From a virus (taxonomy: Duplodnaviria > Heunggongvirae > Uroviricota > Caudoviricetes), in IMG/VR virus record IMGVR_UViG_2778261418_000019, positions 1 to 22,248 of that record: a stretch of 22,248 nt of DNA; one strand, written 5' to 3'. Below the pieces are notes generated by a model, which was not told the DNA's origin, ran no database searches, and worked only from the letters and a program-made list of their open reading frames with translations. The translations under genes were made by a program, and so were the position numbers. Below are positions 14,501-15,334 of the stretch, piece by piece. The number at the start of each line of letters is the position of its first letter. Within the stretch, counting starts at the first letter, position 1.

Positions 14501-15334
14501 TATCCGGGACTTTATCTAATATCTAACCGCGTAGGTGACGGTACTATAGGTAAGCGTGTATATTTTGAAAATAATGGTGAAGATGGACTCTATCTTTTTA
14601 TGGATGGTCATACGTCAACAACCAACCGTAAAACTATACGTTTTGCTAAACCAGAGGCTAATACAGTGATGTATGTTGGCTATAACGGAGGACTAGCACC
14701 AAACGGTAACAGTACAGACGGTGGTTCGGGTAATGATTTTAACATTCAGTATCAAGGATGGAAAAATACTGGCGGTGTTATGTCTAACGCCCCAACGTCG
14801 GGTAGTGTTTACGGCTCTCTATTCACTCAATGTACGCAGGGTCTAGATGCTGGTCCTAGTGCTGCAACTGGTGTATCTGGTCAATGGTATCAACAACGTT
14901 TTTATGATACATCAAACCGTATATTCTCACGTATCCAGACTAACAACAGCTCATGGAGTGCATGGAATCAGATCACTATGTCAGCAGTATCTGACCAGTC
15001 CGTAAAAACTATTCAGGGTGATTTAGATACTAAGGTAGCTCTATCAAATATCAATAGAATGGAATTTAAGAATTTTACATTTAATGATACTCCTGAAAAA
15101 GCTCGACGTGGTGTAATCAGCCAACAGATTATGACTATTGATCCACAGTACGTTAATAAAATTGGTGAATTGTATCATCTAGATCAAACTCCAATGCTAT
15201 TAGATGGACTCGCGGCAATTCAAGAACTATCTAAAGAGAATAACTCACTAAAAGCACAACTAGCAGACCAACAGCTACAGCTTGATGAACTACGTGCTGT
15301 AGTAACTCAATTACTAATTGCACAGAATAAATAA
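11600..15334 (+). CDS. tail-tube-domain / long fibre fusion protein with a C-terminal S74 intramolecular chaperone (1244 aa)
   Basis: Residues 1-143 are paralogous to the 152-aa major tail protein at 15395-15853. The middle carries fibre motifs (TINGKALTGNISITKGDVGLSNV, NLSDLADNSIARTNLGL, LQGGTGASTAEQARTNLGI). The C-terminus SDQSVK...GVISQQIMTIDPQYV...coiled coil matches the peptidase S74 chaperone pattern. Confidence 0.85.
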   Translation: MANQIITGGGFKLYFNNDTANRIPDNAGNEQVNELAAMPTFGVDSQVQTIEVYDSGFSEKLLSEKTASNIPITVNYVADCTAHKFLDEMTESQEEFQLTLQYDVTDGLISYSMVNGAISSYSLNGDKDSVVTKTYNFVPTEVIATNAIAPLSENLVVGSYGVGANGNDVPQYEPLTPEGNSFIKVPASQLGNPASADMMGVGLIDGNSFSSIAMTKSGTLAIYAKNQNTAWTRILTATQISDQYVPLTRTINGRALSTNISITKGDVGLSNVTNDAQLKIASNLSDLADNSIARTNLGLSRFQQYANPVGETRVVSGDGNMRLFVKNDGTWGVWNGTANASQPLPILQGGTGASTAEQARTNLGILSSSEVSNLYVPKTTTINGKALTGNISITKGDVGLSNVTNDAQLKIASNLSDVADVTTSRNNIKAPTVGGGQIIAVPAPPGVEADKYYPVIIDLSYDNISSTGAHIDLYTKSSSGGDPMNSAQFNGFVRAGGWTDRGDAGYGYYNCYAPSEKALNCILVSAKVAEDKMAVYVEGRAFPVRMRIPAFCTAFAPTATYTAGSDVVYPWGVADPMSTAVANGTRALFDFRQARPGFYMSNSSTTTPNYYIGGGGRAVLSNGMNIGENLTITAPKLTFSGNIEAGNGFIASGTGVNDFTFVSKQLNADLSTKSQSEFRTSDGAIQLVWRGVTSSDTTQFFNFNSDGTFSSPNGFLSSTGQDWNGQTSIVNRSRFLAGSVNGPDGTNVYGGTHTGFSGNYGFQIVGRQNKAFFRTIEAGTNGTWNQIPTLNLANTWAGTQSFTGNLSITGKVTSPITIEGGSPAFILNQTGTGATKYSLIGTDGNITLSKNDTFDVIKYTSSTDTLSTAAANTTLKNLSVTGNLSSTGTLTTTGSLNAQSLTTTGIVNAGSVTTTGSVNADTIVATGSIDSSSLTTTGSVTSGSLSTGTVTASGDIISSSKIVTQANYPGLYLISNRVGDGTIGKRVYFENNGEDGLYLFMDGHTSTTNRKTIRFAKPEANTVMYVGYNGGLAPNGNSTDGGSGNDFNIQYQGWKNTGGVMSNAPTSGSVYGSLFTQCTQGLDAGPSAATGVSGQWYQQRFYDTSNRIFSRIQTNNSSWSAWNQITMSAVSDQSVKTIQGDLDTKVALSNINRMEFKNFTFNDTPEKARRGVISQQIMTIDPQYVNKIGELYHLDQTPMLLDGLAAIQELSKENNSLKAQLADQQLQLDELRAVVTQLLIAQNK
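12326..12496 (+). repeat. fibre repeat copy 1 (57 aa)
   Basis: QYVPLTRTINGRALSTNISITKGDVGLSNVTNDAQLKIASNLSDLADNSIARTNLGL. Bases 12380-12447 are identical to 12773-12840. Confidence 0.9.
12719..12889 (+). repeat. fibre repeat copy 2 (57 aa), offset 393 nt from copy 1
   Basis: LYVPKTTTINGKALTGNISITKGDVGLSNVTNDAQLKIASNLSDVADVTTSRNNIKA. It holds the other copy of the 68-nt perfect match. Confidence 0.9.
14221..14470 (+). repeat. about six tandem degenerate ~11-residue repeats (TTTGSVNAxxL type) within the fibre
   Basis: TTTGSLNAQSL / TTTGIVNAGSV / TTTGSVNADTIV / ATGSIDSSSL / TTTGSVTSGSLS / TGTVTASGDII. Confidence 0.7.

Follow-up and report, generated by a model that had tools for sequence, protein, structure and literature searches.

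The fibre gene and its product

The DNA analysed here (the window) is a stretch of 22,248 nucleotides from a tailed virus, IMG/VR record IMGVR_UViG_2778261418_000019, and constitutes a siphophage morphogenesis module with a lambda-like gene order. One open reading frame (ORF) of this module encodes a protein of 1244 residues that matched three PHROG tail-fibre families, phrog_6578 (1.2e-128), phrog_5481 and phrog_1980. The gene product is very probably the long lateral tail fibre of a lambda-like enterobacterial siphophage prophage of low guanine plus cytosine (GC) content, with an S74-type chaperone at its C-terminus and a paralogue of the tail-tube protein at its N-terminus. The coordinates of the features discussed below are collected in Table 1.

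The only Pfam family matched by the whole fibre protein was PF13884 (Peptidase_S74, "Chaperone of endosialidase"). A search of NCBIfam gave no match for the fibre, for the tube protein encoded downstream or for the fibre orthologue of the related prophage L001, and a megablast comparison of the fibre gene with GenBank phages gave none either. Related prophages were found in two complete Escherichia coli genomes, NZ_CM135810 (strain WGI31CT; L001, an apparently intact prophage) and NZ_CM151386 (L002). In the shaft of the fibre a 49-residue motif (YVP.T.TING.AL..NISITKGDVGLSNVTNDAQLKIASNLSD) is repeated, the two copies being identical at 40 of 49 positions; the same motif is also present in the relatives P0014 and P0019.

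An S74-type chaperone domain at the C-terminus

The first-pass annotation, made from the sequence alone, had proposed an S74-type intramolecular chaperone, with a catalytic dyad of S1131 and K1136, in the last 114 residues. The peptide quoted there, SDQSVKTIQGDL...MEFKNFTFND...RRGVISQQIMTIDPQYV...LDGLAAIQELSKENNSLKAQLADQQLQLDEL, is the exact translation of positions 14990-15334 (114 residues, then the stop codon), and the residue numbering is right, since the S1131 codon lies at 14990-14992 and that of K1136 at 15005-15007. The pattern SDxxxK occurs only once within the 1244 residues. The hmmscan search suggested as a check of the domain assignment returned PF13884 above its gathering cut-off of 22 bits (E 4.2e-6, 27.4 bits, residues 1131-1185, profile positions 1-57 of 58), the match beginning exactly at S1131; with the C-terminal 344 residues by themselves the score was 29.7 bits.

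Searches of PDB sequences led to the same family. A phmmer search with the last 164 residues found the DT57C LtfA fibre (8hqz), in an alignment of ...VSDQSVK... with ...TSGIEYK... in which the dyad residues stand opposite the Ser and Lys of LtfA. With a profile of 13 homologues, matches were obtained to DT57C LtfA (8hqz, 2.4e-7), the ICA domain of the myelin regulatory factor MyRF (7dc3, 1.2e-5) and 8jov (7e-5), and the profile alignment pairs K1136 with K592 of MyRF. A literature search on entry 8jov ('putative tail fiber protein') found nothing. Both members of the proposed dyad thus align with residues of characterised proteins, and their spacing of five residues agrees with that of S1264/K1269 in T5, S911/K916 in endoNF and S587/K592 in MyRF. 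Based on a profile search of a collection of 5.8 billion proteins, 241 proteins were retrieved; among the matches listed, PF13884 was found in 118 of 120, and many carried the name "pyocin knob domain-containing S74 family peptidase". Over 122 aligned C-termini, S1131 and D1132 were each conserved in 121 of 122 and K1136 in 121 of 121, counts that overstate the independent evidence, as the set is a close subfamily of about 40-60% identity.

The monomer model of residues 1100-1244 computed with AF2 (AlphaFold2) had a mean confidence score (pLDDT) of 92 and consists of a small alpha/beta body followed by a terminal helix of about 48 residues (model residues 97-144). The best Foldseek matches of this model in the PDB were all ICA/S74 structures: MyRF (7dc3; E 2.5e-6, template modelling (TM) score 0.61), GA-1 (3gud), endoNF (3gw6) and T5 pb1 (4uw8); the remaining matches were of low probability, with E-values from about 0.8 upwards. 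The domain occupies the extreme C-terminus (residues 1131-1244 of 1244) of a protein with a fibre-family body. The last 114 residues are therefore, as first proposed, an S74-type intramolecular chaperone domain, and an ordinary one within the known family. Routine annotation already catches this class of feature, for RefSeq labels the L001 orthologue "S74 family peptidase".

Predicted cleavage and maturation

In T5 pb1 the Thr1263-Ser1264 bond is cut, Lys1269 activates Ser1264, and the S1264A mutation blocks cleavage (PMC4690869). In MyRF the P586-S587 bond is cut, cleavage is abolished by S587A or K592A, and its S587/K592 pair has been equated with S911/K916 of endoNF (PMC8326128). Since the cuts in T5 and MyRF fall N-terminal to the Ser, the 131.6-kDa precursor is predicted to split at V1130-S1131 into a mature chain of 1130 residues (118.8 kDa) and a fragment of 114 residues (12.9 kDa, all masses being predicted). 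The same split had been put forward in the first reading of the DNA, and it is the right extrapolation from the characterised proteins.

Trimerisation of the MyRF ICA domain is driven by a C-terminal triple coiled coil, and its cleavage trigger differs from that of the viral domains, being independent of the upstream stalk (PMC8326128). In T5 the residues that sense folding are Arg1250 of the neighbouring chain together with Asp1239 and Thr1263 (PMC4690869). The window fibre has an Arg, R1111, that is invariant in 106 of 106 aligned homologues and lies at -20 from the catalytic Ser, compared with -14 for Arg1250 of T5; by this analogy it is a candidate folding-sensor residue.

We infer that the fibre trimerises, is cleaved and exposes its tip along the following lines. 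The C-terminal coiled coil (residues ~1196-1243) and the alpha/beta body would bring three nascent chains into register, and the chaperone would serve as a template on which the trimeric knob at the distal end and the shaft fold, beginning at the C-terminus. After correct folding of the trimer, K1136 would activate the S1131 hydroxyl and the V1130-S1131 bond would be cut in each chain. The trimeric cap (12.9 kDa) would then leave and the receptor-binding tip of the 1130-residue mature fibre would be exposed. Loss of the cap is likely to free the tip for binding, because uncleaved T5 fibre protein fails to compete for the receptor (PMC4690869). For expression or engineering of such fibres, the C-terminal 114 residues would be needed for folding and are predicted to be absent from the mature protein, so that the receptor-binding tip would end near residue 1130.

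A tube-protein paralogue at the N-terminus

The S74 cap being well known, the less ordinary part of the protein is its N-terminus, which lay outside the finding of the first-pass annotation: instead of standing free, the fibre has a paralogue of the tail-tube protein as its base. Residues 1-143 matched phrog_158 'major tail protein' (1.2e-18). A gene for a plain tail-tube protein of 152 residues begins 60 nucleotides downstream of the fibre gene. This protein scored 28.1 bits against Pfam Phage_tail_3 (cut-off 24.2), and RefSeq names its orthologues in L001 and L002 'phage tail tube protein'. Based on BLASTP, the fibre N-domain and the downstream tube protein align over 139 residues at 32% identity, the alignment having two gaps (E 9e-21).

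The PDB entries that Foldseek ranked highest for an AF2 model of residues 1-250 were tube proteins of siphophages or tailocins (lambda gpV, YDC107, Sf11, monocin, NF5 and 80alpha), with Hcp next; E-values ranged from 5e-7 to 1e-4, and TM, normalised to the target, reached 0.71. The first 143 residues of the fibre are thus a paralogue of the adjacent tail-tube protein, with the lambda gpV fold. In the same model, residues 155-172 had a pLDDT below 50 and beta strands were placed at 181-234. Full-length lambda gpV, which comprises the tube domain and an immunoglobulin (Ig)-like domain, aligned with it over 244 columns, and the model suggests that the second beta domain of the fibre (residues ~175-240) may be equivalent to the Ig-like domain of gpV. 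Tube-like domain, linker and second beta domain together form the conserved anchor of the family.

Extension of a tube protein by frameshift or read-through, as in SPP1, lactococcal and Listeria phages, is ruled out by the separate ORF: the fibre ORF lies upstream of the tube gene and has its own ATG and a Shine-Dalgarno-like motif, AAGGA. Between the two genes, 8 nucleotides past the fibre stop codon, a perfect 9-bp stem with a 5-nucleotide loop (GTAGGGAAA aggac TTTCCCTAC) was found at 15342-15364. With no T-run behind it, the stem-loop does not qualify as a canonical intrinsic terminator; it may act in RNA stability or attenuation and so set the ratio of fibre to tube expression.

Relatives of the fibre

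An exhaustive HMMER search with residues 1-150 against 1.84 billion representatives of clusters at 50% identity retrieved 122 proteins. Ninety-eight of them are long (280-1563 residues), nearly all matching at their own residues 1-146, and the other 24 are short, mostly plain tube proteins of about 145-165 residues that rank chiefly among the weakest matches. An iterated local hidden Markov model (HMM) found a C-terminal S74-like domain with a motif of the (S)D-x3-K type in 61 of the 98 long representatives. The tube-like N-terminus on long proteins therefore defines a sizeable uncharacterised family of about 98 clusters, of which about two-thirds are S74-capped.

In each of the seven loci compared (the window, L001, L002, L004, L005, L006 and L007) the fibre gene is followed, in most cases directly, by a plain tube gene. 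Between loci the tube genes show 58-70% identity and the fibre N-domains 40-42%, whereas a fibre N-domain and a tube protein share about 30%. Since orthologues are more alike than paralogues, the duplication that separated tube and fibre is old and has been maintained. Among 50,697 GenBank phage records only one distant relative was found, in Escherichia phage DCP80 (21% identity, "hypothetical protein"), and a single-protein scan of genome contigs gave only two loci.

The L002 prophage is integrated at yegD, beside a serine recombinase gene; its orthologue of the fibre has 1233 residues and the same C-terminus, and is annotated only as "tail fiber domain-containing protein". The L001 orthologue (1074 residues; RefSeq "pyocin knob domain-containing S74 family peptidase") has a different shaft and another S74 subtype, SDANFK, with a Pfam score of 49.2 bits. 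In L006, a relative from Enterobacter, the tube-anchored fibre (6995-9409, 804 residues) is devoid of an S74 domain, and a separate gene for a 125-residue Caudo_TAP fibre-assembly protein of the lambda Tfa type (9411-9788) lies between the fibre and tube genes. This natural swap of S74 for Caudo_TAP supports a chaperone role for the S74 module.

Fibres that differ in S74 body and shaft agree almost completely in their last ~22-36 residues (…DQQLQLDELRAVVTQLLIAQNK), an end that was found with the S74 types SDQSVK, SDANFK, SDQRAK, SDINTK and SDLRVK. This suggests that the near-identical end is a conserved 3' recombination boundary for swapping of the tip cassette beside the conserved tube gene. 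As for DCP80 (L007; PQ671644.1, 1760-16530), the 141-kb record is classified as Straboviridae/Gaprivervirus, yet its head-tail module is lambda-like. In this module two long proteins, of 698 and 745 residues, are encoded upstream of the gene for a 164-residue tube protein, and the distant tube-like N-terminus is on the first of them. The record may be chimeric or misclassified.

Genomic context and state of the prophage

The gene order upstream of the fibre is small and large terminase, W-like head-tail joining protein, portal, a protease-capsid fusion, an FII-like attachment protein and a 149-residue protein. Downstream of the tube gene come a chaperone gene, a 104-residue ORF without family match, the tape measure, the distal tail protein, a DUF2163-type tail protein (RefSeq's name for the L001 orthologue), DUF6950 and a J-like tip protein. 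The capsid gene (8959-10857) encodes a 632-residue fusion of a prohead-protease-like N-terminal part with the major capsid protein (phrog_617, phrog_4523, phrog_80) and overlaps the end of the portal gene.

The GC content is 35-44% throughout the window (1-22248), whereas that of the E. coli chromosome is about 51%. The low value suggests that the DNA was acquired recently from hosts of lower GC or circulates among them.

The window ends in a terminal inverted repeat of IS2, which interrupts the J-like tail-tip gene (start at 20458): about 583 codons are left here compared with 1100 residues in L001. Megablast of the whole window against GenBank phages matched only this 41-nucleotide IS2 end. 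The tape-measure gene is in two ORFs in different frames, 16600-16992 (130 residues) and 17039-18808 (589 residues). The split is due to a 1-nucleotide indel near 16985-16995 relative to the single 732-residue ORF of L001, and L002 has the identical sequence. It could mark a pseudogene, or a shift that is tolerated or programmed.

Table 1. Positions in the window of the fibre gene, its parts and other features (positions elsewhere are named as such)
Feature	Position	Strand	Residues or extent	Basis
149-residue protein	11135-11584
Tail-fibre gene	11600-15334	+	3735-nucleotide ORF, 1244 residues	ORF list and translation
N-terminal tail-tube-protein-like domain	11600-12028	+	1-143	phrog_158, BLASTP, AF2 fold
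Low-confidence linker and second conserved beta domain	12029-12319	+	~155-172 and ~175-240	AF2; conservation in P0014-P0020
49-residue shaft motif, two copies	12329-12475 and 12722-12868	+	244-292 and 375-423	Direct comparison
Shaft module common with T5-like LtfA	12860-13981	+	421-794	49% identity to the phage JLBYU43 fibre protein
R1111, invariant Arg, candidate folding-sensor residue	14930-14932	+	1111	106/106 aligned homologues; analogy with T5 Arg1250
Predicted scissile bond V1130-S1131	14987-14992	+	1130-1131	Homology to T5 Thr1263-Ser1264 and MyRF P586-S587; S1131 is PF13884 profile position 1
S74 intramolecular chaperone / putative autoproteolysis domain	14990-15334	+	1131-1244 and stop	Pfam, PDB sequence matches, conservation, AF2
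Long C-terminal helix, predicted trimerising coiled coil	15185-15331	+	~1196-1243	AF2 model
Near-identical C-terminal end	15230-15331; L001 18440-18542; C-termini of P0129-P0133 and P0136
Plain tail-tube (major tail) protein	15395-15853	+	152 residues	phrog_158 (3.7e-21), Pfam Phage_tail_3
IS2 terminal inverted repeat (TGGATTTGCCCCTATATTTCCAGACACCTGTTATCACTTAA)	22208-22248		Last 41 nucleotides of the window

Proposed attachment of the fibre and alternative explanations

The most likely and most economical reading of the N-domain is that it stands in a tube-ring position. It would take the places of tube subunits in a hexameric ring and so anchor the fibre covalently to the tail, and three neighbouring subunits would feed one trimeric fibre through the flexible linker (residues ~155-172). 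We tentatively propose, with somewhat less than even confidence, that the lateral fibres of this family attach as subunits of the tube ring, two trimeric fibres per hexamer via the flexible linker, and are not docked onto a collar or baseplate protein. If this is true, the tube-paralogue anchor would be a simple covalent way to fix side fibres on a flexible siphophage tail. It would also be a portable anchor in a cassette with interchangeable tips that carry an S74 domain, a separate Tfa-type chaperone or other endings, and this cassette could be used for host-range engineering. Annotation pipelines would need an addition, as the present labels are only 'tail fiber domain-containing' or 'hypothetical'. 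No description of tube-protein-fused fibres was found in the literature, the RBPseg fibre atlas included, a coverage that is partial and no proof of novelty.

Several observations weigh against parts of this interpretation. At the C-terminus, the Pfam score of 27.4 exceeds the cut-off of 22 by a moderate margin and the conservation counts come from close relatives. At the sequence level endoNF and T5 pb1 were reached neither by phmmer nor by the profile search, and they were matched at the fold level alone, with weak E-values of 0.04-0.1. A resemblance to S74 by chance in a coiled-coil-rich C-terminus, which did draw spurious low-score PDB matches (P22 gp26, NEMO, FosW), is nevertheless effectively refuted by the Pfam, PDB profile and fold searches: the Pfam match sits in the non-helical body (residues 1131-1185), N-terminal to the long helix, ICA structures alone stand at the top of the fold search, and the dyad aligns with characterised members. 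Cleavage, trimerisation and incorporation into virions are predictions. A true S74 homologue might be kept uncleaved as a trimerisation and folding module, the mature fibre then having all 1244 residues; the trigger does differ between MyRF and the viral domains (PMC8326128), so behaviour varies within the family, and as an upstream candidate folding sensor the alignment shows only the invariant R1111. We consider this improbable, because S1131, D1132 and K1136 are kept in 121 of about 122 relatives, which would be unexpected if catalysis were dispensable, and by the T5 precedent (PMC4690869) retention would probably mask the tip. The copy of the prophage studied here is itself probably defective, judging from the IS2 end in the J-like gene and the tape measure that is frameshifted relative to L001. 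The fibre may therefore never reach a virion in this host, and virions, hence virion mass spectrometry, may be unobtainable from this strain. The fibre gene as a decaying remnant, with a real architecture but a protein that is no longer made or assembled and a predicted processing without present role, is an unlikely explanation but one that carries some weight. It is opposed by the intact 3.7-kb fibre ORF, by the 96.6% DNA identity of window positions 1-14327 to the L002 prophage, by the existence of intact relatives with all dyad residues and by the presence of the tape-measure indel in L002 as well, so that the indel is perhaps tolerated or programmed.

At the N-terminus, the first 250 residues matched no Pfam family (E <= 0.1), and the tube homology of the N-domain therefore rests on PHROG, on BLASTP to the neighbouring gene and on the fold, for which the model of residues 1-250 is of moderate confidence (pLDDT 74). 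A ring of 6-fold symmetry that feeds 3-fold fibres also has to be assumed, and this is a symmetry mismatch. It is possible, though less likely than not, that the tube-like N-domain lies outside the tube proper, as a peripheral adaptor or in a specialised end ring. Such a ring could be a neck ring of the terminator type, the fibres then being neck fibres, or the ring that sits first on the distal tail protein. Only the 149-residue protein, which has no PHROG match, is encoded between the FII-like gene and the fibre gene, which seems to leave one lambda-type function, in tail completion or as terminator, unaccounted for, and T5-like phages fix their S74 fibres at a specialised tube-like TTMP ring near the tip (PMC10713586). 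However, along its whole length the N-domain aligns with the tube protein at 32% identity and with hardly any indels, so that it keeps the elements of a tube subunit, and a position in an end ring overlaps with attachment through the tube ring rather than excluding it.

Comparison with known systems

The window fibre resembles T5 pb1 and DT57C LtfA in being a long lateral fibre of an E. coli siphophage that ends in an S74 domain with a Ser-x4-Lys dyad, and the C-terminus of DT57C LtfA is its best PDB sequence match. The likeness extends to the shaft, where residues 421-794 show 49% identity over 374 residues to the tail-fibre protein of Escherichia phage JLBYU43 (E 7e-112), and other shaft modules are common to lateral fibres of Queuovirinae-type E. 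coli and Cronobacter phages. Residues 1-146 are covered by none of the matching T5-like or Queuovirinae-type lateral fibres. Residues 147-369 were considered as a T5 Ltf N-terminal anchor and ruled out, because they align with LtfA residues 206-445 and not with the LtfA N-terminus. The DT57C and T5 fibres are held non-covalently by short N-terminal strands in a dodecameric LtfC collar around the tube-like TTMP ring (PMC10713586), whereas the window fibre carries its tube-like unit, a tube-protein paralogue, within its own chain as the first 143 residues. An LtfC-like gene was not seen in the window, and the distal knob that precedes the chaperone is different from that of T5 and DT57C.

EndoNF of phage K1F, the founding member of MEROPS S74/PF13884, shares with the window fibre the Pfam family, the dyad (S911/K916), the C-terminal position and a similar fold (3gw6), but as the tailspike of a podophage it has an enzymatic body, and it matches the fold of the model weakly (E ~0.04). 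The MyRF ICA domain (7dc3) is the nearest solved structure to the AF2 model, and the C-terminal trimeric coiled coil and the cut before the Ser are features of MyRF, which differs from the fibre in being a eukaryotic membrane-bound transcription factor. The nearest sequence relatives of the knob and S74 domain are the 'pyocin knob domain-containing S74 family peptidase' fibres of Enterobacter, Citrobacter and Escherichia (40-60% identity, all with PF13884 and the same S, D and K); these are short, of about 380-400 residues, and possess neither the tube-like N-terminus nor a long shaft. Like lambda gpV, the window protein begins with 143 residues of tube fold followed by a second beta domain. 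However, known tube decorations are single Ig- or FN3-like domains borne by the main tube protein, whereas here a separate paralogue bears a predicted trimeric fibre of about 1000 residues and its own S74 chaperone.

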